Assembly (NCBI GenBank): GCA_045594025.1
Contig: JAZNXS010000030.1
Location: 3,230 to 67,229, forward strand
Direction: 5' to 3'
Length of the DNA stretch: 64,000 nucleotides
From: Candidatus Scatosoma sp.
GTDB taxonomy: Bacteria > Bacillota > Clostridia > Christensenellales > Borkfalkiaceae
The notes beneath the pieces were generated by a model. The model worked only from the letters and a program-made list of their open reading frames with translations. It searched no databases and was not told the origin of the DNA. The position numbers and the translations under genes are program-made. Below, piece after piece: positions 43,230-55,854 of this stretch (its first letter is position 1; each line of letters starts with the position of its first letter).

Positions 43230-44759
43230 ATGTTGAAAGCGTTATTGACAAAAATGAAAGAAGCCGCCGTATCCGTGCTCCCCGTGGCATTGATCGTGCT
43301 TTTATTAAATTTCACCCCCTTGGTGTCCTTCACCTTGGAGGAGACTATCGTTTTCGCATGCTCTTCCATAGCCCTCATTTTGGGCATCTCCCTTTTTAAC
43401 CTCGGCGCAGACATCTCTATGACGCCTATGGGAGAACAAATCGGTTCGACCTTACCGAAATCCGGGCATTTCAAAACGTTGCTTGCGGTTTGTTTTATTA
43501 TGGGTGTGTTCATCACGATTGCTGAACCCGACTTGTCCGTACTTGCTTCGCAGGTAAAAGACGCCATCGACGGAAAACTGCTTACGGTTGCCATCGGCGT
43601 CGGCGTTGGATTTTTCCTGCTTTTATCGGTGCTGAAAATCGTCTTCCGTATCAGCCTTTCCAAGTTATTGACCTTCTTTTATATGTTGTTGTTTGCGTTG
43701 GTATCCTTGGTTCTGATTAACGGAAACGGAAACTTCCTGCCCCTTGCTTTTGACTCGGGTGGGGTTACCACGGGCCCGATCACCGTGCCTTTTATCATGG
43801 CGCTTGGCGTAGGCGTCTCCGCCAGCCTTGGCGATAAGAAGGATAGAGAATCCAGTTTCGGCTTTATCGCGCTTTGCTCCATCGGCCCTATCCTTGCTGT
43901 TATGCTACTCGGCGTGTTTGCGGATAATCAACTGACTTACACCCTGCCGGATTATTCCATGGAAGCGCACTTGGGTGACTTGTCCTCAACCCTGCTCCAC
44001 ACAATGCAGGAGGTTGTGATTGCTATCGCCCCCATCGTTGCGTGCTTCTTTATTTTACAAGCGCTGTTTATGAAATTGCCGAAAAAGCGTCTTTTGCAGA
44101 TCGTCATCGGTATTTTCTACACCTTCTTCGGTTTGGTGATTTTCCTCACCGCCGTCACCGTCGGTTTTATGCCCATCGGTTTTAAATTAGGAACTCAGCT
44201 CGCGCAGACACATAACGCGCTCCTTGTAGCCATCGCATTCGTGCTTGGGTTTGCCGTCGTTCTTGCCGAACCTGCCATTCACGTTTTGAAACGTCAAGTG
44301 GAAACGGTCACAAACGGCGCCGTTAGTAAAAAATCTATGTTGATTGCGCTCTCCGTGGGCGTAGGCGCATCCATTGCGTTGTCGGTCATCCGCATCATCT
44401 TTAATTTCAGCATTCTTTATTATATGATACCCGGCTATTTCATCTCGCTTGGGTTGTCCTTCTTTGTGCCGAAATTATACACGGCAATCGCATTCGACTC
44501 CGGCGGCGTTGCAAGCGGACCCTTGACGTCGACGTTTATTCTCCCCTTTGTTATCGGGATCTGCGCGACGCTCTATCCCGCCGATCCGAATAACGTGCTC
44601 ACCCTTGCGTTTGGGCTTGTCGCCATGGTTGCCATGACGCCGCTTATCACCATTCAGGCTTTGGGCTTTAAATCCATCGCTACTCAGCACTTCAAAGAAC
44701 GCATCGCTATGCGCCGTATTCTTGACGCAGACGACGAACAGATCATTCAATTTATGTAA
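43230..44759 (+). CDS. DUF1538-like polytopic membrane protein with an internal duplication
   Basis: 509 aa with more than 10 TM helices. A duplicated signature is present: AFDSGGVTTGPITVPFIMALGVG and AFDSGGVASGPLTSTFILPFVIG. Confidence 0.65.
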   Translation: MLKALLTKMKEAAVSVLPVALIVLLLNFTPLVSFTLEETIVFACSSIALILGISLFNLGADISMTPMGEQIGSTLPKSGHFKTLLAVCFIMGVFITIAEPDLSVLASQVKDAIDGKLLTVAIGVGVGFFLLLSVLKIVFRISLSKLLTFFYMLLFALVSLVLINGNGNFLPLAFDSGGVTTGPITVPFIMALGVGVSASLGDKKDRESSFGFIALCSIGPILAVMLLGVFADNQLTYTLPDYSMEAHLGDLSSTLLHTMQEVVIAIAPIVACFFILQALFMKLPKKRLLQIVIGIFYTFFGLVIFLTAVTVGFMPIGFKLGTQLAQTHNALLVAIAFVLGFAVVLAEPAIHVLKRQVETVTNGAVSKKSMLIALSVGVGASIALSVIRIIFNFSILYYMIPGYFISLGLSFFVPKLYTAIAFDSGGVASGPLTSTFILPFVIGICATLYPADPNNVLTLAFGLVAMVAMTPLITIQALGFKSIATQHFKERIAMRRILDADDEQIIQFM

Positions 44760-44775
44760 AACGGGGGTTACAGGT

Positions 44776-45183
44776 ATGAGTTTATTGAAAAAACCTCGCA
44801 AAAACAGAAAAGCCAACCTCGTGGAAAAGGACGCACCTATGAAAGCGGACTTTAAGAAATTAAAGCTGATCGTAACCGTGGTCAACCGCAATAAAACGGA
44901 ATTCTTCCTCGACTATTTAACAACGTTTGGCGTCAACTTCCAAACGGCGGTCGCAGGACAAGGCACAGCAAAATCGGAAACGCTGTATCTGCTTGGTTTG
45001 GAAGATTCGGATAAAGGCATTATTTTTAGCGTTATCAACGAGGACAAAGCGCCTGAGGCTATGCAAGGCTTGGAAGAAAAATTCCACACCATTCGCAACG
45101 GCAAAGGGATTGCATTCACCGTCCCCTTAACCAGCGTCATCGGCGTTGCTATTTACCGTTTTTTAAGTAACAATAGGAAATAA
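44776..45183 (+). CDS. PII-like (GlnB-fold) small regulatory protein with a basic N-terminal extension
   Basis: Start at ATG 44776 with an SD GGGGG. The core KLIVTVVNRNKTEFFLDYL...GIIFSVINEDKAPEA...GIAFTVPLTSVIG looks like a beta-alpha-beta PII fold. Confidence 0.55.
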   Translation: MSLLKKPRKNRKANLVEKDAPMKADFKKLKLIVTVVNRNKTEFFLDYLTTFGVNFQTAVAGQGTAKSETLYLLGLEDSDKGIIFSVINEDKAPEAMQGLEEKFHTIRNGKGIAFTVPLTSVIGVAIYRFLSNNRK

Positions 45184-45195
45184 GGAGAAAGACTC

Positions 45196-45525
45196 ATGAA
45201 ATATAATCACGAAGCTATTTTTTGTATCGTAAACAGCGGTTACAGCGACGTCGTTATGGACGCTGCGAAAAAGCTTGGCGCGCGCGGCGGTACTGTGATC
45301 AACGCCAGAGGTACTGCAAGCAAAGACGCGGAATCCTTCTTTGGAATCACCATTCAACCGGAAAAGGAAATCGTTATGATTCTTGTCCCCTCCTCCATTA
45401 AAGACGACGTTTTACACGCTTTGTATAAGGAAGCAGGGTTGGATACGGCAGGCCAAGGGATTGCCTTTGCGCTGCCCGTAGATAGCGTAGTCGGTCTTGC
45501 CGACTCCACCTCGGAAACGAAATAA
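45196..45525 (+). CDS. PII-like (GlnB-fold) small regulatory protein
   Basis: 109 aa. AIFCIVNSGYSDVVMDAAKKLGARGGTVINARGT...EIVMILVPSSIKDDVLHAL...GIAFALPVDSVVG. Confidence 0.65.
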   Translation: MKYNHEAIFCIVNSGYSDVVMDAAKKLGARGGTVINARGTASKDAESFFGITIQPEKEIVMILVPSSIKDDVLHALYKEAGLDTAGQGIAFALPVDSVVGLADSTSETK

Positions 45526-45542
45526 TACATTCACAAATAGAG

Positions 45543-45570
45543 AAAAGCACCCAGCAGGGTGCTTTTTTTG
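45543..45570 (+). terminator. Rho-independent terminator after the PII-like genes
   Basis: GCACCC agca GGGTGC followed by TTTTTTT. Confidence 0.8.
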
Positions 45571-46906: not shown

Positions 46907-46936
46907 ATAAAAAAACGCACCCTTCCGGGTGCGTTT
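46907..46936 (-). terminator. Rho-independent terminator closing the TIR operon
   Basis: The minus strand reads AACGCACCC ggaa GGGTGCGTT followed by TTTTTTT. Confidence 0.8.
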
Positions 46937-46949
46937 TGATAAAGTTCGC

Positions 46950-49034
46950 TTATTTGGATCCTGCGTTCGACGGCTCGTTCGCCTCTCGTTTAATAACGGA
47001 ATAATCAATCCTATCTAACGCTTCGCACATGCCGTCGATGACCATATAATCATAACGGTATATCGATGCCAGCGTATTCATATCCGTAGAGCCAACCTTC
47101 TTTTCGCCCTTTTCAGCCGCTTCTTGTAACACTTTTTGCTTATGCTTAAGCAGCTTGTCAAGCCCAGCATACGTCGTCAGGCAGGCATGGCGGAATTTTG
47201 CTCCGTTCTTGTGCTGTAACACGTCCTTACCCTTTTCGTTACGCGTCCAAATAAATTCCTTAAACGGTAAGGGCTTATATCCGGATAACAAGTAGTAGGC
47301 ATTCCAACGGGAATGTTCGATAAACGCCAACACGTTAGCCGCCTGCGTCCCAAAGAAGTAGTTGTAATCCTCCCCTTTGCTATCCATAAAGACGCCGGGG
47401 CAGTGCTTTTCGATTTCCGCTTTCGTAAGTCCTTCCCCTTTACCCTTCTTTAATTCTAAGCCCATAAGATGCAGCTTGAAATAGAGGTTCAGCGCCGCGT
47501 TAATGTTAGAATATTGCTCCACCACGGGCAGCTTTTGCCAGTCGCGTAACTGCGCCCATTTATCTTTCGTGTAATCGTTATATAAGTCGTTTACGTTTTG
47601 AGAGAGCACCATTAAGTCATTGTTAACAATGTTTTCATGCAAGTAACACTCTGCATTCTCCCCGAAATAAACAATGTTTTTCTCGTCTTTGTTCAATAAA
47701 CGACTTTCCTTTCCCTTCGAGCGAACGAAAATCTTGTAATTTTGCTCGTCCTCCAAGTATTTTTTAAGATCGTGCGCGAAATCAGCGTCTTGATAATCGT
47801 CGGATATGGACACGATGAAATACGTATACGTATCTTTGTTGACCAGCGCGCGAATCTGTTTACGCGTCTCCGCAGAATGCGCGTCCATCGGTAAGCTTTC
47901 CTTTAAATCGCAAATCTTTTCCGCTGCGGGTAAATCGGAATTTTTAAAAATCTCGTCGTACTCGTTAATCAGCTTGATAAAATGCTCGTTATTGAAGCGT
48001 TCGCTGTTGTTTTCAAAGGTATAATAATGCACGGGCGCGGCATATAACTGATCCCCTTTTTGCTTTGCAAATTGGAAATTCGTCGCCATCAGTTTGAACA
48101 GCTCATAATTGACTTTTCCAAACCCCAAAAAGACAACGTTGACTTCCTTTTCATCTTTCAACGTTAAGTTCTCGTTGAAAAAGCTACGGGGCATGTACTT
48201 GGTGATGGGGTGTTCCATGATAAAACGGCGCGCCATCAGCTCGTAACGGCAGAACGGCAATACGAACGTATTTGCTTGCTCGGAAACGTCCGAAAGATAC
48301 TTTTCACGCACCATTCCCAGCTCATTTACATTGGCTTCCAAATGTAAAAATAATCGCTTATCCCTCTTTTCCTTCAGTTTCTCAAAACACGATAAAATGG
48401 AAAAGTAGGAATAGCTTGTATCGCGGAATACAATCAAATGATACTCTGCGCCCTTTAAACACTTAGAAACGGTTTTTTCGTTCAATGGCGCTTTATGTAC
48501 GGCATGTTGCTGTTTAATCAAGCTCAAATACGTCTCTTTGTCGATTTCTTCCACCCAAAGCACAGCGCCTTTATGGGCTTCTAAGTATTTCAAAGAGCTG
48601 GGCGACAGTCCGATTACGATGTCGCCGCCCATCATGAAGCTTTTGCGTTTCTTTAAGCCGTTTGTGATTGCCACGCCAAAGAAAACGAAAACGCCGAAGA
48701 TAACGGTGATAAACGAGAGAATGCACGCCCCGATCATCGCTGCATGAAACCAAGGATTCGCTTGACTTAAAGCAAGCACCAACGAATCATTTAATTCCAT
48801 GGATACCATGGATAACGTTTCATGAATGAGTAAAAATAACGTATAGAACGTAATCTTCTCGCCGTTATAAACGGTCGCCATCGTATACAGCGCGTACACC
48901 ACAACAAAGGCGGGCAGCGCATAAATCAAGCTTTTTTTGTCGATCACCGCCCTCTTTTTGATAATCAAATACCCCAAAAACCCGATTAACGCTATTTCTA
49001 TACATAAAAACAATATGCTTAATTCCGTATACAT
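46950..49034 (-). CDS. Polytopic membrane protein with Rossmann-like modules and a C-terminal RyR-like segment (third gene of the TIR operon)
   Basis: 694-aa ORF with an SD GGAGAA. Four to five N-terminal hydrophobic helices span aa ~5-125. Rossmann-like strand-loop starts are DIVIGLSPSS and VNVVFLGFGKVNYEL. The C-terminal IEHSRWNAYYLLSGY...FRHACLTTYAGLDKL resembles the bacterial RyR-domain pattern. Confidence 0.6.
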   Translation of the reverse strand: MYTELSILFLCIEIALIGFLGYLIIKKRAVIDKKSLIYALPAFVVVYALYTMATVYNGEKITFYTLFLLIHETLSMVSMELNDSLVLALSQANPWFHAAMIGACILSFITVIFGVFVFFGVAITNGLKKRKSFMMGGDIVIGLSPSSLKYLEAHKGAVLWVEEIDKETYLSLIKQQHAVHKAPLNEKTVSKCLKGAEYHLIVFRDTSYSYFSILSCFEKLKEKRDKRLFLHLEANVNELGMVREKYLSDVSEQANTFVLPFCRYELMARRFIMEHPITKYMPRSFFNENLTLKDEKEVNVVFLGFGKVNYELFKLMATNFQFAKQKGDQLYAAPVHYYTFENNSERFNNEHFIKLINEYDEIFKNSDLPAAEKICDLKESLPMDAHSAETRKQIRALVNKDTYTYFIVSISDDYQDADFAHDLKKYLEDEQNYKIFVRSKGKESRLLNKDEKNIVYFGENAECYLHENIVNNDLMVLSQNVNDLYNDYTKDKWAQLRDWQKLPVVEQYSNINAALNLYFKLHLMGLELKKGKGEGLTKAEIEKHCPGVFMDSKGEDYNYFFGTQAANVLAFIEHSRWNAYYLLSGYKPLPFKEFIWTRNEKGKDVLQHKNGAKFRHACLTTYAGLDKLLKHKQKVLQEAAEKGEKKVGSTDMNTLASIYRYDYMVIDGMCEALDRIDYSVIKREANEPSNAGSK

Positions 49035-49085
49035 CTCTTTCTCCGCGGCCGTCCATAATCCTATACGGTTATGACGCCGATTCTT

Positions 49086-52031
49086 TTATAATTGATCGAT
49101 GATATGTTTAAACTCAAAATTATTCTCTATCATTCTTTCAAACAGCTCGATACCGATTTGCGTCTTCATTTCGTTTTTCTTGCTCTTCCACTGAGACGCT
49201 TCTTCCTGTGTGAACGTGTATTTTGCGGAAGCATAATACTCGAAGAAGGTATATACCGTCTGCAAAACATTGACGTCGTGCGCAATTTTCGCATTGATAT
49301 TGTTGCTGTTATAGTATCCCGTCCAAACGTTATAATAATACGTGAGGTTGGCAATATTCGGATACGTGCCTTTTAAGAAGAGCTTTCTCATAAAATGATT
49401 TTGCTCGGCAGGATCCATATCCTCAGAGACCATTTTCGCCCCCTGGCTTCTGTTTTGAACCTGCGCCATGTCATGAATCAACAGCATATCCAAAATTTCT
49501 TTTTTGTTATAGCCTTCCGCCGCCATTTCTTCCGGCAGGAAGAGCATCGCCAAGAGCCAAGAGCTAAACATGTGCTCTGAAACGCTTTCCGGTACGTCTA
49601 CCGTATCAATCCATTGCGTCCGTTTAATCTGCCTTAAAACGTTGCACTGATTGTACAGCATCGGGCCGATGTCAAGCCCTCCGTCAGCAAGGAAACGTAA
49701 GAAGTCCTCTTTGACGCTCTCGAAATAATAAAGAATTTTAGAGGATACGATATTGTGCGGCTTTTGTTGATACGTTTCCAAATAACGCACTGCATTTTTG
49801 ACGTAGGTTTGAATGTCAAAGTTAGGCTTTATCACCTTACTTTGAATACGGGTTTGCAATAAGGTAAGCAACGTAACTAGATTGTTCTCTACAAACTTAT
49901 CCCTATTGTTCTCCAACGACGCTTCCACTCTGGCCTCCAACGCCTTGATTGCGCCCTCGCCAAAATTCGGGTTCGTGTCCAGATAGTAGGTGTTATGCGC
50001 CCCCATTTGGTACTGTTCGCTGTAATATTCCACCGTTGCGCCACGGTTTACGGCGTTTGCAATATCGTTGGTGATGACAATACACAAGTATTCGTCCATC
50101 ATGTTGGCTTGGCCGTGGAATAACATACCCGTACAAACCGCGCGGAACAATAAATGCTTATCTAAATTATCCTGCGTGTTCTTGTTGTTGGTTTTCACCG
50201 CAGACTTTAACTTTGTAAACTCCCCTGTTAAGAAGGAAAGGGCATAGTTGACCATCTCCTTGCTGTAATTGATTCTACCAAGCCAAAAGGCTGCGTTCGC
50301 TTTTTGACGAACGTCAAACACCTCATATTTATCGTCGATAAAGGCGATGAATTTCTCCTGCAATTCATAGTTATCTTGTAACATTGCCACTACAAACTGG
50401 TTTGCCGTCGCCGTCAGCATAACTTTGAAGAAATCATAGTTATTCAACGTCTTATAATTTTCGATTTGATAAACGAAATAATACGCAATCAAATACCCTA
50501 AGTAAGTATGATGTTTGTTGGGGAAAGACCACACTTTGCCATCGTAAGCATTATCGATACAGCCGTCACCGCCGCTAAATAAATATTCAAACAGCGTTTT
50601 GGATACCTGCAATAGTCTTTCTTCTTCCAAATATTCCGTCAAAACGAACTTTTCATACATGTCGCTGAGGCAAATATCCGTATCGTAGCTGGTGGCAATT
50701 TCCCTTGCAATGAGCCTGATTAAGAATATATCCACAGAGGGATATTTTAACTTCTTTAACAGGTCGTACACCGTCTCGCAAGCCGCGCTTTCCCCATACA
50801 TTTTTAACACGCTGCGAATCACTTTCGTGATTTTTTGTTTTTGTTCGATAGGGATAGAATGGAATAATAATAAATATCCGCCGCGCATTTCCCCCGCGAT
50901 AGGAATTACCTTCTTTAAGCGTATGCGGTTTTGAATCAAACCCGTATCGATCGCCACTGCTCTATTGTAGCGTTCGAAGGGCTTAAACAGCATATAAATG
51001 ATTTTTTCGGGACTCAGACGGGTAACAACGTACTCTCTTACCCCTTCCAGCAAAAGAACGGGTTTTACTTCTTTGTTTTGCTTAACGTACTGGAAAAATT
51101 CCGCCGTGTCCTCCGAAATCAATTCCTGCATTTCGGATTCCGCATCGTTATAATCAAACTTTTCATAATACCCGATGGACAGGTATATCGGTAAAACGTC
51201 GCTTTCGTTTTTCTCGAAGCGATCCAGCATTTTAAAAAACGCCAGCTGTAATAACATGTTTTTCGCGCTGCCGGGCAACCCCTGCACACGGACGATATTA
51301 TGCTCTTTTGCCGATAAAGCGTCTACCAATAAACGGACGTAATCCGTATCTTGCGAAAGCAGTTCATCCTTGTTATAACCACTCACCGTTTCCGAGAATA
51401 ACACGTTGGCTTCTTTTACAAAGCTATTATACGACTCCTCGCCGTCTACGCGGTCGAATAAGCTGTACGCAAATTTCGAGGAAAGCATCTTCAGTTTCCA
51501 TACGATTGCCTTTCTCGTTAGATTATCTTCTATAACCGCCTTTGCCTTGACGGAAGCCTCTTCTGTCTTTTTTATAATGGGTCTGGGAATGCTCCGCAGC
51601 GTATCTGCGCGCGGAATTTCTTTGCCCTTTGCACCCAGAATGCTCATAATGGTCGAGCGCAGTTTTTCCAGCCCTTCTGCAAAATCGTGATACGCGTCAA
51701 TCCAGTGCTTTCTTCCTAAGTAATACAAAAAGCCGTTGGAAAATTTCACGTTTTCGATTTTGAACGCGATGATGGGTTTTTCGCAATCGAACGCGATTGC
51801 CAGCTCGTTGCTGACGTGGTTAGATTCGTTGGTGTCTTCGGAAGCAACCAACACGAACGCATCGCAATTTTTAATTCCTTCCACAATTTCTGTAGGATAA
51901 TCCTTTCCGGGAGAAATACTGTACGGCGCCATCCAACACCCGATTCCGCTTCTTTGCAGAAATTGATATACGGCGTCTGCGCTTTCTATGTTGTTAGAAG
52001 TATAGCTGATAAAAATCGAATTTGCGTTCAT
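49086..52031 (-). CDS. TIR domain - degenerate P-loop (STAND/NACHT-like) - HD phosphohydrolase fusion protein
   Basis: The start is ATG 52031, with an SD AGGAG 9 nt upstream. GTG 52064 is the long-ORF alternative. TIR-like N-terminus: SIFISY, GCWMAP, CDAFVLVASEDTNESNHVSNELAIA. Central region: VRVQGLPGSAKN and KPVLLLEGVRE. C-terminal HD motif: ESVSEHMFSSWLLA...LLIHDMAQV. Confidence 0.7.
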   Translation of the reverse strand: MNANSIFISYTSNNIESADAVYQFLQRSGIGCWMAPYSISPGKDYPTEIVEGIKNCDAFVLVASEDTNESNHVSNELAIAFDCEKPIIAFKIENVKFSNGFLYYLGRKHWIDAYHDFAEGLEKLRSTIMSILGAKGKEIPRADTLRSIPRPIIKKTEEASVKAKAVIEDNLTRKAIVWKLKMLSSKFAYSLFDRVDGEESYNSFVKEANVLFSETVSGYNKDELLSQDTDYVRLLVDALSAKEHNIVRVQGLPGSAKNMLLQLAFFKMLDRFEKNESDVLPIYLSIGYYEKFDYNDAESEMQELISEDTAEFFQYVKQNKEVKPVLLLEGVREYVVTRLSPEKIIYMLFKPFERYNRAVAIDTGLIQNRIRLKKVIPIAGEMRGGYLLLFHSIPIEQKQKITKVIRSVLKMYGESAACETVYDLLKKLKYPSVDIFLIRLIAREIATSYDTDICLSDMYEKFVLTEYLEEERLLQVSKTLFEYLFSGGDGCIDNAYDGKVWSFPNKHHTYLGYLIAYYFVYQIENYKTLNNYDFFKVMLTATANQFVVAMLQDNYELQEKFIAFIDDKYEVFDVRQKANAAFWLGRINYSKEMVNYALSFLTGEFTKLKSAVKTNNKNTQDNLDKHLLFRAVCTGMLFHGQANMMDEYLCIVITNDIANAVNRGATVEYYSEQYQMGAHNTYYLDTNPNFGEGAIKALEARVEASLENNRDKFVENNLVTLLTLLQTRIQSKVIKPNFDIQTYVKNAVRYLETYQQKPHNIVSSKILYYFESVKEDFLRFLADGGLDIGPMLYNQCNVLRQIKRTQWIDTVDVPESVSEHMFSSWLLAMLFLPEEMAAEGYNKKEILDMLLIHDMAQVQNRSQGAKMVSEDMDPAEQNHFMRKLFLKGTYPNIANLTYYYNVWTGYYNSNNINAKIAHDVNVLQTVYTFFEYYASAKYTFTQEEASQWKSKKNEMKTQIGIELFERMIENNFEFKHIIDQL

Positions 52032-52067
52032 CTCATTTTTCTCCTGTGTAACCTGTCTTGTCACGCT

Positions 52068-53375
52068 TTAAAACCAAACGGTATACATAACGTACCCGGC
52101 GTTAAAAATAAACTCTTCGCCGAAAAAAGCCTCTTCCAAATCGTCGTAATATTCATCCACCCAAGCCAAAACTTCTTTTGCCGTTTCGTCGTTGGGATCT
52201 TCTTTCAGCATCAAGCCGAAATCGTTGGGGATAAAAGCGAACCAAGACTCGAATAACAAGCGCTTCGCTTCATAATCCATACCCGTCGAGTTGATCCCGC
52301 AACGCTCTAAGCGGATATCCTTCGCACCAAGCTTTTTCATGTAGCTGTAAATTTGTCTGCCCGATTTACGGAATCCGCCCAGCTTATTAAACTTGTAGAA
52401 AGACTGAAATTCTTTAAACAGATTGTTTTCATCAGGGTAAGCGAACACCAACGTGTCATCCACGTCGCGAATGAACGCTACTGCATTCGGGTTCATATAT
52501 TTCTTGATTTTTTTCAAAACTTTGAACGGAGATTCCAAATCCAAAATTGTCATAGTAAGATTGAGGAAATCAAAGCCCTTAATACCGCGCTCTTGCATGA
52601 CCCTCGGTAATACTTCGTCAATTTTATCCTTGGTTAAATCCATCAGATAAAACCGCATGTTGTCATGCTCTTCACAGAGTTTATTTCCCTCTTCAATCAT
52701 CTGTTGATCATAGGAGAAATATACGGCTTTGCCCACTTCCTTACGATCGAATCTTCTTATGGTAGAATCTGCGCTAAGCACATTAAAATCCAAAACGGCT
52801 ACGTTCTCGCGGCCCAAAAGCAGCTTATCGTAATACGGCTTTTCATAGCTATACAACAGCTCTTCTTCGTTGTGGATTCTTTCACATTCTACTGCGTCTT
52901 CGGGCATGTAGTATTGATTAACCTTTCTTTCCACTTCCACCTTTTCATTCTTCTCGTAGCGCTCTGTTTTCTCAATACCTAAAATAGGCACCAGCTGTTC
53001 GTAAAGGTGGTAAATACTCTGTTCCAAAGGCTCGCTTACGGCGTCGATCCAATGCAGACGCTTTACGTAATATTCCATGGCTTTGGAAAGAATTCCTTCG
53101 TCCACTTTGAACGGGATAATGGTGATTTCACCGTTTAAAATACGCTTGTACGCCATTTCCACTTCATTTAATACGTGCGGAGATTCCGACGAGTTGTGAT
53201 TGAGAATCAAAACGAAAACTTTGCATTTTTCAATCGCTTCCACGATAGACGTGGCGTAGTCGCCGTAAACGTCCCGAGGCGCATACCAACAACGCACCCC
53301 TCTCGTCTCTAATACAGAACAGATATTATCCGCGATCGATTTCGATTCGTGCTCGTAACTGATGAAAACGTCCAT
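52068..53375 (-). CDS. TIR domain - methyltransferase-fold-like fusion protein
   Basis: 435 aa with an SD AGGGAGA. TIR-like aa 1-135: VFISYEH, VRCWYAPRD, CKVFVLILNHNSSESPHVLNEVEMA. The C-terminal half resembles a class I methyltransferase fold with a degenerate SAM loop: VAVLDFNVLSADS and FDFLNLTMTILDLESPFKVLKKIKKYMNPNAVAFI. Confidence 0.65.
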   Translation of the reverse strand: MDVFISYEHESKSIADNICSVLETRGVRCWYAPRDVYGDYATSIVEAIEKCKVFVLILNHNSSESPHVLNEVEMAYKRILNGEITIIPFKVDEGILSKAMEYYVKRLHWIDAVSEPLEQSIYHLYEQLVPILGIEKTERYEKNEKVEVERKVNQYYMPEDAVECERIHNEEELLYSYEKPYYDKLLLGRENVAVLDFNVLSADSTIRRFDRKEVGKAVYFSYDQQMIEEGNKLCEEHDNMRFYLMDLTKDKIDEVLPRVMQERGIKGFDFLNLTMTILDLESPFKVLKKIKKYMNPNAVAFIRDVDDTLVFAYPDENNLFKEFQSFYKFNKLGGFRKSGRQIYSYMKKLGAKDIRLERCGINSTGMDYEAKRLLFESWFAFIPNDFGLMLKEDPNDETAKEVLAWVDEYYDDLEEAFFGEEFIFNAGYVMYTVWF

Positions 53376-54535: not shown

Positions 54536-54659
54536 ACTACTCTCCTTTTTTACATCTTAGCCCTATGCGCGAAGCGCATTATACGTATATTTTAACTGAA
54601 ATGACCGAAAAAGTCAATAGTTTCATGATTATAAGTATAGTTTCACGGAAAATCTAATG

Positions 54660-54688
54660 TAAAAAGCACCCACAAAGGGTGCTTTTTG
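54660..54688 (-). terminator. Bidirectional rho-independent terminator after the ASCH gene
   Basis: AAAAAGCACCC acaa AGGGTGCTTTTT. Confidence 0.75.
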
Positions 54689-54690
54689 CT

Positions 54691-54701
54691 TTGGAGCAGG
54701 T
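54691..54701 (-). repeat. 11-nt direct repeat of the tRNA-Gly 3' end (att-like scar)
   Basis: ttggagcaggt at 54691-54701 is identical to 55779-55789, which covers the CCA end and the 3' acceptor stem of the tRNA. Confidence 0.5.
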
Positions 54702-54786
54702 AATAAAAGTTATATCATGTATAAAACCACGAGAATACTGCCCTCTATTTATTTCTTTTCTCATTAAGTAACTCTCTTACAGTGAT

Positions 54787-55552: not shown

Positions 55553-55736
55553 TCATCACGCCATAGGCGTGTATATCATCAAGGCGCAAGCCTTGTATAT
55601 CACCAACACAAAGTGTTGTATATCATCAAGGCGCAGATAGATACACGCTGATGCGTGATGATATACAGCTCCAAAGGAGCTGATGATATCCACCACACTT
55701 CGTGCGGTGATGATATACCAAGTCTGCGACTTGGAT
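55553..55736. repeat. Hairpin-ladder repeat, GTATATCATCA family
   Basis: GTATATCA(T/C)CA occurs at 55571, 55595 and 55618. The inverted TGATGATAT(A/C)C occurs at 55656, 55681 and 55708. Seven perfect mini-hairpins lie between them (CACGCCataGGCGTG, AAGGCgcaaGCCTT, AACACaaaGTGTT, CACGCtgatGCGTG, AGCTCCaaaGGAGCT, CACCaCACttcGTGcGGTG, CCAAGTCtgcGACTTGG). Confidence 0.75.
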
Positions 55737-55779
55737 AAAAAAATACTGCAGAAAATGTGTCCTTTTCTGCAGTATTTTT
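55733..55779 (-). terminator. Rho-independent terminator downstream of tRNA-Gly
   Basis: 15-bp stem AAATACTGCAGAAAA / TTTTCTGCAGTATTT flanked by A/T runs on both sides. Confidence 0.8.
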
Positions 55780-55854
55780 TGGAGCAGGTGACGAGAGTCG
55801 AACTCGCCGGGAACAGCTTGGGAAGCTGCCGCCATACCGCTAGGCGACACCTGC
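55780..55854 (-). tRNA. tRNA-Gly (anticodon CCC), CCA encoded
   Basis: The reverse complement is GCAGGTGTCGCCTAGCGGTATGGCGGCAGCTTCCCAAGCTGTTCCCGGCGAGTTCGACTCTCGTCACCTGCTCCA, which I folded into a cloverleaf by hand. Features: 7-bp acceptor stem, anticodon loop TTCCCAA, T-loop TTCGACT. Confidence 0.9.

Follow-up and report, generated by a model that had tools for sequence, protein, structure and literature searches.

Thoeris systems of types I–XI join a TIR protein, ThsB, to an effector that is activated by a signal, and a 2025 survey of TIR signalling systems lists 29 putative Thoeris types, among them types with membrane effectors and a type X in which the effector is an ‘ion channel’ and the signal is unknown (10.64898/2025.12.03.692087 for both statements). 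Ryanodine receptor (RyR) domains have appeared on the phage side of this conflict: phage RyR-domain proteins bind or hydrolyse the Thoeris signal 2'/3' cyclic ADP-ribose (2'/3'cADPR) by means of an H-x-x-W pair, a downstream His and an Asp, and one of these proteins, RyDEP, is a glycosidase with a His/Asp dyad (PMC13232231); an independent preprint reports contacts at H129/W132, H154 and D171 in the protein RyR Tad (10.64898/2026.06.04.730250). Both preprints deal with phage proteins only. The locus considered here lies in the genome of a bacterium, Candidatus Scatosoma sp. (assembly GCA_045594025.1, contig JAZNXS010000030.1, positions 3,230 to 67,229); ‘the window’ is this whole stretch of 64,000 nucleotides (nt). 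Three consecutive minus-strand genes are at issue: A, which encodes a TIR domain fused to a methyltransferase-like domain; B, in which a TIR domain is joined to a STAND NTPase and an HD phosphohydrolase; and C, which encodes a membrane protein. Because the operon of the two TIR genes also encodes a membrane protein with a tail similar to the cADPR-binding RyR domain, the locus is probably an undescribed Thoeris-like immune module, as far as sequence and predicted structure can tell. On balance, and by a modest preponderance, it reads as a modular Thoeris-like TIR signalling module with an output protein of a kind not previously described.

The likeness to Thoeris is one of organization. A TIR gene stands beside a gene for a non-TIR protein that has membrane helices and a domain predicted to bind a nucleotide signal; one type of effector is found with diverse TIR partners; and there are membrane effectors in Thoeris types II, V and VII, as well as the ‘ion channel’ of type X (10.64898/2025.12.03.692087). 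The differences begin with C itself, whose architecture (transmembrane segment, two RCK-like domains and an RyR-like domain) matches none of the ThsA–L models compared. A and B match ThsB hidden Markov models (HMMs) only at 1e-4 to 1e-5, far below the NCBIfam cut-offs, and C matches none; the TIR domains of A and B are fused to large domains (pseudo-methyltransferase and STAND-HD), whereas ThsB is small; and a TIR gene adjoins C in only about a quarter of cases. The type X effector was compared with C by description only, so that the two could be identical; type X TIRs are DUF1863-like, unlike those of A and B. The strings RyR, TrkA and methyltransferase do not occur in the Thoeris survey (10.64898/2025.12.03.692087), as far as its text and tables were accessible; a literature search on RyR with TrkA found no relevant paper, and no mention of a TIR-methyltransferase fusion was found in the literature.

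An earlier first-pass annotation, made by a model from the letters of the DNA, had described a three-gene operon and proposed it as a candidate undescribed TIR-based system with Thoeris as the closest known concept. That choice of comparison was right. Gene neighbourhoods tie TIR genes to the C family, and no PADLOC, NCBIfam or Pfam model assigns the locus to a named system; these models give generic TIR-level matches only. The idea of an undescribed system survives in the link between TIR genes and C and in the lack of a named match, and is not borne out as to a fixed three-gene unit or an island context.

The membrane protein C and its RyR-like domain

In an AlphaFold2 model of C (pLDDT 86, pTM 0.81), the N-terminal membrane domain is followed by a tandem RCK fold and a helical C-terminal domain. 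Foldseek places the model closest to the GsuK channel ‘bound to NAD’ (7.7e-6, the best match), followed by a TrkA ring (2e-4), MthK and Slo1. C thus shares with RCK channels and with TrkA/KtrA rings a membrane domain followed by two tandem RCK-type Rossmann domains, and the second of these keeps the GxG and the acidic residue typical of NAD/ATP binding; C differs from them in having no selectivity filter, no Pfam TrkA_N match and an additional RyR-like domain. A reading of residues 1–135 and of the family consensus found no K+ selectivity filter (GYG or T-V-G-Y-G); C is therefore not called a K+ channel, and that candidate was rejected. Searches with C alone gave nothing useful from Pfam, PADLOC, NCBIfam or PDB sequences, and Pfam scans of 57 close and 66 distant relatives returned a single TrkA_N match.

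The C family comprises 1,046 cluster representatives at E <= 1e-3, and has no Pfam model; length and layout are mostly common to the best 150 of these representatives. In the loci fetched, the family occurs mainly in gut Clostridia-type metagenome-assembled genomes (MAGs). Only four residues are invariant in 116 of 116 relatives (21–42% identity): G304, in the LGFGK loop of the second Rossmann domain, and W577, H616 and D662, all three in the RyR-like domain. E573 (114/116), R576 (113/116) and H574 (103/116) are nearly so.

The nature of the C-terminal domain was approached through profiles. A profile of the close C subfamily reached no PF02026 protein, so that a broader one, built from the 116 relatives, was needed. 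This profile picked out nine ORFs from outside the family, at 1e-7 to 8e-4, among the 4,826 open reading frames (ORFs) of the fetched loci; all eight of the nine that were tested match PF02026 in the same region, at 27.8–39.1 bits against a cut-off of 27.4. One PF02026-type protein, of 588 amino acids (aa), from locus L010, matches C in the membrane, Rossmann and C-terminal modules alike. The sole PDB sequence match of the C-terminal profile is an RyR1 repeat (E 0.017), and the alignment sets H616-A-C-L-T-T-Y of C opposite the RyR signature H-P-C-L-V-P-Y. An hhalign comparison of the C family with the HD-RyR-SLOG family described below gave E 0.006 at only 6% probability, which is weak alone. 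On this profile evidence, the C-terminal domain of C is read as a divergent RyR Repeat12 domain, in which W577 and H616 align with the ligand-contacting residues of canonical RyR domains.

The assignment matters because the two preprints of 2026 cited above show that RyR domains act on TIR-made 2'/3'cADPR. C resembles RyDEP and RyR Tad in domain family (RyR Repeat12, of the PF02026 superfamily) and keeps the H-x-x-W pair and the later His, both of which touch 2'/3'cADPR in the phage proteins; it differs in being a host membrane protein encoded beside TIR genes, in the far greater divergence of its domain, and in having no relative in viral contigs, where pattern scans found none of B either. 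The first-pass annotation had recorded Rossmann-like and RyR-like segments in C, and these are borne out by the model, by Foldseek and by the profile links; its author could not know the key mechanistic lead, namely that RyR Repeat12 is a cADPR-binding module. It had also suggested searching the three proteins against Pfam: TIR_2 and HD_3 emerged as anticipated, the methyltransferase match stayed sub-threshold, and TrkA_N and RyR gave no match.

In several species, a soluble family of ~760 aa is encoded next to or near C. Its members combine an N-terminal HD-like motif (HRDHYSHS...LFHDIGYP), a Pfam RyR domain and a C-terminal SLOG/DprA-like Rossmann domain (for the loci see Table 1), and would be candidates for another receptor of nucleotide signals.

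The TIR proteins A and B

Both proteins open with a TIR domain, as the first-pass annotation had supposed: the Pfam TIR_2 matches (1.5e-18 for A, 8.2e-20 for B) lie above the curated cut-off, and the two domains are 36% identical (E 3e-27). The claim that each retains a Glu at the catalytic position also holds, as E71 of A, in NEVEMAY, and its counterpart in B, in NELAIAF, align with the Glu of the W..EL helix in the TIRs of Cat1 and TIR-STING.

The remainder of A was described as methyltransferase-like, correctly, although its own Pfam match (Methyltransf_23, 19.3 bits against a cut-off of 27) is sub-threshold. A has 282 homologues, which make up a family of TIR-methyltransferase fusions of about 435 aa; relatives at 38–46% identity have full matches to Methyltransf_11, 12, 23, 25 or 31, and the family profile finds the methyltransferase 3mgg (1.5e-10) and the Cat1 TIR (4.9e-7) in the PDB. 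In the family alignment, A and its close relatives read VLDFNVLSAD and FSYD where intact members have VLDLGSNNG and GLEY: the S-adenosylmethionine (SAM)-binding motif I (GxGxG) and the acidic residue after it are gone in the subgroup to which the window's protein belongs. Since this glycine loop and the acidic residue that follows are lost, the domain is most likely a class-I methyltransferase fold that has become a pseudo-enzyme, and an active methyltransferase was rejected for this subgroup. The pseudo-methyltransferase plausibly serves as a sensor.

B is a bacterial protein of TIR-NLR-like build that ends in an HD phosphohydrolase. What had been called a ‘degenerate P-loop module’ turned out, by Foldseek on an AlphaFold2 model (pLDDT 84), to be a STAND/NLR-like NTPase: the best match is the plant TIR-NLR RPP1 (1.8e-6), further matches are the NLRP3 NACHT, the STAND-TPR protein 6mfv and Apaf-1, and the TIR part finds SPARTA and SARM1, the C-terminus HDDC2. 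The HD domain, likewise foreseen, matches Pfam HD_3 at 2.4e-14 (54 bits against a cut-off of 22.5), and H820, H853, D854 and D919 are invariant, so that the metal-binding motif H...HD...D is intact. Profile comparison of this region with the PDB gives the 5'-nucleotidases HDDC2/YGL101W at 5e-14 and DatZ at 9e-4; the domain is closest to HD enzymes of 5'-nucleotidase type. In its order of TIR, central STAND NTPase and C-terminal helical array, and in its best fold match, B resembles the TIR-NLRs (Avs, bNACHT and the plant TIR-NLRs, or TNLs). It departs from them in the HD_3 domain and in Walker A, which is a conserved variant (GxPGSAKN; GLPGSAKN in B) instead of the canonical GxxxxGK[ST], and it has no PADLOC Avs or NACHT match. 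The repeated occurrence of B beside an RyR-type membrane protein suggests production of a signal, as in plant TNLs, and not depletion of nicotinamide adenine dinucleotide (NAD+) alone.

Homologues of B have been seen beside uvrB-uvrA in one species (L006/L007:8001-15885) and, in a second and a third, near a small SIR2 gene and near an ADP-ribosylglycohydrolase (L152:3692-4420; L154:2629-3573). At L002:12219-12479, and also in L003 and L004, an 86-aa TIR fragment lies 3' of C, at the place where L027:2661-5654 has a B-type gene of 997 aa; RHS/YD-repeat genes follow the fragment in loci of the L002 type. It appears to be a decayed B gene.

Pairing of TIR genes with C, and what it may mean

Loci of C were collected by pattern scan, one genome per species, which gave 60 loci, mostly from gut Christensenellales-type MAGs; TIR neighbours were found with an iterated TIR HMM, and a neighbour was called operon-like when on the same strand, separated by gaps of <200 nt and within two genes of C (100 neighbours, from 46 of the 60 loci). 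Within two genes of C, a TIR gene is present in 16 of the 60 loci; with the limit set at 10 kb, the number rises to 22. Among the operon-like neighbours, TIR_2 heads the list of Pfam families (15/100), followed by GNAT (7/100). The TIR partners are varied: TIR domains are joined to an intact or degenerate methyltransferase, STAND-HD, Sel1/TPR, LRR, MORN or HAD-PfkB, or have no other recognized domain. Such diversity would be expected if varied sensors feed one effector.

Pairs of A with C, of B with C and of A with B recur independently, in varying order (Table 1), and the recurring theme is modular pairing of varied TIR proteins with a C-type protein of TM-RCK-RyR layout (TM, transmembrane). 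A compact version exists in a different sequence lineage, where a 491-aa protein with a TM part, an LGFGK Rossmann domain and a canonical RyR domain is encoded directly 5' of a 790-aa TIR-NB-ARC-TPR gene. The three genes of the window are not conserved as a unit: B is often found alone and A often without C, and the closest relatives of the window locus, L014 and L015, have GNAT-GNAT-A-C and no B. Because of these relatives, B looks like an addition to an older GNAT-GNAT-A-C cassette; when the spacers on either side of B were aligned with the A-C spacers of those two loci, no clear junction emerged that would mark its insertion.

The GNAT genes belong to this picture. Homologues of the window's 207-aa GNAT precede A-C in L014, L015, L028 and L042 and lie 18–40 nt 5' of C in L024, L047 and L053; homologues of the 168-aa GNAT hold the same position in L014 and L015. 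P0324, an 866-aa member of the C family, carries a C-terminal GNAT domain (residues 685-821) homologous to the 168-aa protein (E 5e-8), a fusion which suggests that C and the GNAT genes are linked in function.

Two more neighbourhoods were seen. At L001:7763-9849 (= L011), C, 66% identical, is divergent from genes for a GDPD phosphodiesterase and a 447-aa protein with a C-terminal TIR; the phosphodiesterase occupies the place of the HD domain in the window's B. At L017:4645-7581, the gene for a 978-aa fusion of TIR, HAD phosphatase and PfkB kinase, an unusual TIR architecture, precedes a C homologue by 178 nt.

Domain identities, residue conservation and the counts of neighbours are observations; the pathway that may join them can be put as follows. 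A and B, with the domain make-up described, would sense infection; once triggered, their TIR domains would turn NAD+ into a signal derived from ADP-ribose, most likely an isomer of cyclic ADP-ribose. C would receive this signal in the RyR Repeat12-like pocket around H574, W577 and H616, and its second Rossmann domain may also bind nucleotide. The RCK-like domains would relay the change to the N-terminal membrane helices, which would open or disrupt the membrane: ion gradients would collapse and the infection be aborted. The HD domain of B might modify or terminate the nucleotide signal or have nucleotide pools as its substrate, and so might the GDPD enzyme of the related locus; the pair of GNAT genes upstream probably plays an accessory part. 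The whole would be modular, with C-type proteins paired with many TIR sensors.

A more ambitious version, tentative and rather less probable than the module itself, makes this a host-side bacterial pathway in which a TIR enzyme acts, by way of a cyclic ADP-ribose signal, on an RyR-domain membrane channel that is gated via a Repeat12 pocket coupled to RCK domains. Its sensors would include NLR-like TIR-STAND proteins acting as signal generators, as in plant TNLs; it would correspond, on the prokaryotic side, to the control of animal ryanodine receptors by cADPR, and perhaps be its evolutionary source; and it would be the natural target that phage RyR sponges mimic. Like the animal receptors, C is a membrane protein with a Repeat12-type domain, and its proposed pathway includes a TIR enzyme of cADPR-synthase type; unlike them, it has an entirely different membrane domain and size, with no homology beyond the repeat, and in C the channel function is only predicted.

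If true, the proposal adds an effector class, TM-RCK-RyR, and two kinds of sensor fusion, TIR-pseudo-methyltransferase and TIR-STAND-HD, to TIR-based bacterial immunity. Some bacterial TIR-NLRs would then signal to a separate effector, beyond NAD+ depletion, in parallel with plant TNL immunity, and bacterial RyR domains, so far known from phage anti-Thoeris proteins only, would acquire a cellular role. RyR Repeat12 as an ancient cADPR-sensing module coupled to ion flux would be relevant to the long debate over how cADPR acts on animal ryanodine receptors.

An unlikely alternative holds that the genes are independent neighbours: A and B would be self-contained TIR NADases, B being Avs-like with its TIR and HD as its own effectors; C would be a resident RCK-type membrane or ion-transport protein regulated by NAD(H) or ATP; and TIR genes would tend to land in a variable spot beside it. 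TIR-STAND proteins are usually regarded as self-contained NAD-depleting effectors, and this is one of a series of points that weigh against a shared pathway. B stands alone in L006-L009 and L152, and at least 10 metagenome loci with enough flanking sequence to tell have A but no C. No TIR gene lies within two genes of C in 44 of the 60 species-level loci, and between syntenic C loci a TIR gene can be the only difference (present in L040, absent from L021 and L034); C is therefore independent of an adjacent TIR, unlike known Thoeris effectors. Genes for DUF1538 and P-II proteins are near C in the window and in four distant species (L012, L048, L049 and L052), and such long-range synteny looks more like that of a resident gene than of a mobile defence gene. 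The defence-island or mobile-island context that had been proposed was not confirmed: no known defence system is enriched near C, PADLOC adding TIR-level matches only, and neither an integrase nor a repeat bracketing the TIR block was found in the window. The RyR assignment, too, is one of remote homology: Pfam PF02026 has no match in C or in the 57 close and 66 distant relatives; a Foldseek search of viral structures (BFVD) with the C model yielded nothing below E 0.03; and at the position 17 residues past the second His, where canonical domains have an acid, C shows no conservation, its invariant D662 lying elsewhere. The fold of C is also nearest to housekeeping RCK assemblies. Mere adjacency, however, accounts poorly for the place of TIR_2 at the head of the operon-like neighbours, for pairs that recur in varied order with gaps of 0–50 nt or overlaps, for the same pairing in another lineage between a compact RyR protein and an unrelated TIR-NB-ARC-TPR protein, or for the concentration of the best-conserved residues of C in a type of domain now known to bind TIR products.

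Two further accounts keep the nucleotide signal and change its use, and each is improbable. C, or its RyR-like domain, might be a regulator: a sink or glycosidase for cADPR isomers, like phage RyDEP, that would set a threshold, prevent autoimmunity or recycle ADP-ribose. RyDEP works with a His/Asp dyad, C keeps H574 in most relatives and D662 in all, and hydrolases are present at these loci (HD in B, GDPD in L001); yet several membrane helices and two RCK-like domains would be more than a simple sink requires, the layout mirrors that of ligand-gated channels, and no residue can be matched to the catalytic acid with confidence. The other account, which deserves as little weight, is a physiological second messenger unrelated to phage defence, in which a TIR-made messenger of cADPR type would act through C on ion flux in stress, sporulation or germination. 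It would suit the wide and syntenic distribution of C in gut Christensenellales-type MAGs, the GNAT neighbours with their one fusion to C, the sporulation gene YpeB near the locus in the window, and the missing defence-island signal; it sits badly with the gain and loss of TIR genes between syntenic loci, and with the fast turnover and extreme diversity of TIR-fused sensors (STAND, LRR, TPR/Sel1, MORN), which are typical of immune receptors. A Thoeris-like signalling module continues to be the reading preferred here.

Operon layout and surroundings

The features of the locus, together with the pairings found elsewhere, are collected in Table 1.

Table 1. Features of the A-B-C locus (window coordinates) and related arrangements in other loci (locus handles, with coordinates where given)
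Feature	Position or locus	Strand	Description
Gene A	52068-53375	minus	435 aa; TIR + methyltransferase-like domain
A, TIR	52971-53375	minus	aa 1-135
A, methyltransferase-like part	52071-52928	minus	aa ~150-435
Gene B	49086-52031	minus	981 aa from ATG 52031; 992 aa from alternative GTG start 52064
B, TIR	51627-52031	minus	
B, STAND NTPase + helical array	~49662-51524	minus	
B, HD_3	49089-49643	minus	
Gene C	46950-49034	minus	694-aa membrane protein
C, membrane helices	48630-49034	minus	aa 1-135: 2-25, 33-56, two short, long 94-135
C, RCK-like Rossmann domain 1	48249-48629	minus	aa 136-262
C, RCK-like Rossmann domain 2	47655-48152	minus	aa ~295-460; G304-F-G306-K
C, divergent RyR Repeat12-like domain	46980-47627	minus	aa ~470-685; E573-H574-x-R576-W577, H616-x-C618, D662
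Intrinsic terminator	46907-46937	minus	directly 3' of C; closes A-B-C unit
GNAT acetyltransferase, 207 aa	53416-54039	minus	Pfam Acetyltransf_1 5.8e-11
GNAT acetyltransferase, 168 aa	54029-54535	minus	Pfam Acetyltransf_1 5.9e-8
Two sigma-70-like promoter matches	54589-54663	minus	5' of first GNAT gene; candidate operon promoter
tRNA-Gly(CCC) gene	55780-55854		
A-C pair	L014, L015, L028, L042; L085/L086		L085/L086 deeply diverged, with overlapping ORFs
B-C pair	L027		C then B
B-C pair	L153		B then C, 4-nt overlap
B-C pair	L010		RyR-TM protein, then B, then TIR-LRR
A-B pair	L151		no C
Compact RyR/TIR-NB-ARC-TPR pairing	L101:6390-10316; also L102-L105, L109, L115, L128		human-gut metagenome contigs; different sequence lineage
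~760-aa HD-RyR-SLOG protein	L022:7559-9934, L025:208-2469, L032:7580-9883, L035:7220-9490, L039:2778-5075, L033:4041-6311, L053:17462-19732, L042:3-1358		

All three minus-strand ORFs exist as the first-pass annotation drew them, and its spacings are correct: 36 nt from the stop of A to the start of B (3 nt if the GTG start is used) and 51 nt from B to C, each gene having a Shine-Dalgarno sequence of its own. AAGGGAG precedes the ATG of A and GGAG lies upstream of C. In B, AGGAG stands 9 nt upstream of the ATG at 52031, which agrees with the start of the database protein P0090 and is the better start of the two. The strong terminator proposed 3' of C is real: the stem AAAACGCACCC / GGGTGCGTTTT with the loop GGAA (stem-loop 46937-46912) is followed by a U run and folds at -27.1 kcal/mol (z -5.6), with none of 200 shuffled sequences folding equally well.

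The three genes do form a tight unit with a terminator, yet the transcription unit probably has five members, GNAT-GNAT-A-B-C. The two GNAT genes overlap by 11 nt, and the stop of the second, the 207-aa gene, is 40 nt from the start of A; the longer unit is supported by this short gap, which holds no hairpin or terminator, and by the fact that the closest good promoter-like sites precede the first of the GNAT genes. These sites, TTTACA-18-TATACT and TTGACT-17-TAAAAT, each agree with the consensus at 10 of 12 positions and are consensus matches only.

The block had been described as AT-richer than its surroundings. Its G+C content is lower than that of the adjoining 40–47 kb stretch (41–45% against about 46–49%), a difference of 4–5 points; the spot-check values of 28–35% first reported for it do not stand. 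It had also been placed in an accessory stretch ending at a tRNA gene, and the tRNA-Gly(CCC) gene is real. A 21-nt copy of its 3' end (17/21 identical; 54690-54710 against 55778-55798) lies 1,088 nt away, and the two copies bracket ASCH and 23S-rRNA-IVP genes only; the copy could be left over from a small insertion targeted to the tRNA gene, or match by chance. A tRNA-linked island was rejected for the TIR block, which this repeat does not reach and which no integrase or flanking repeat marks as an island.

The genomes closest to the window are Candidatus Scatosoma MAGs. C is flanked in the window by genes for a DUF1538 membrane protein and two P-II-like proteins (43230-45525). A near-identical sequence (AAAAGCACCC...GGGTGCTTTT) occurs in three terminator hairpins, at 45543-45568, 46913-46938 and 54662-54687. 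Between the IVP gene and the tRNA gene (55553-55635) stand two 36-nt direct repeats, 78% identical and 47 nt apart.

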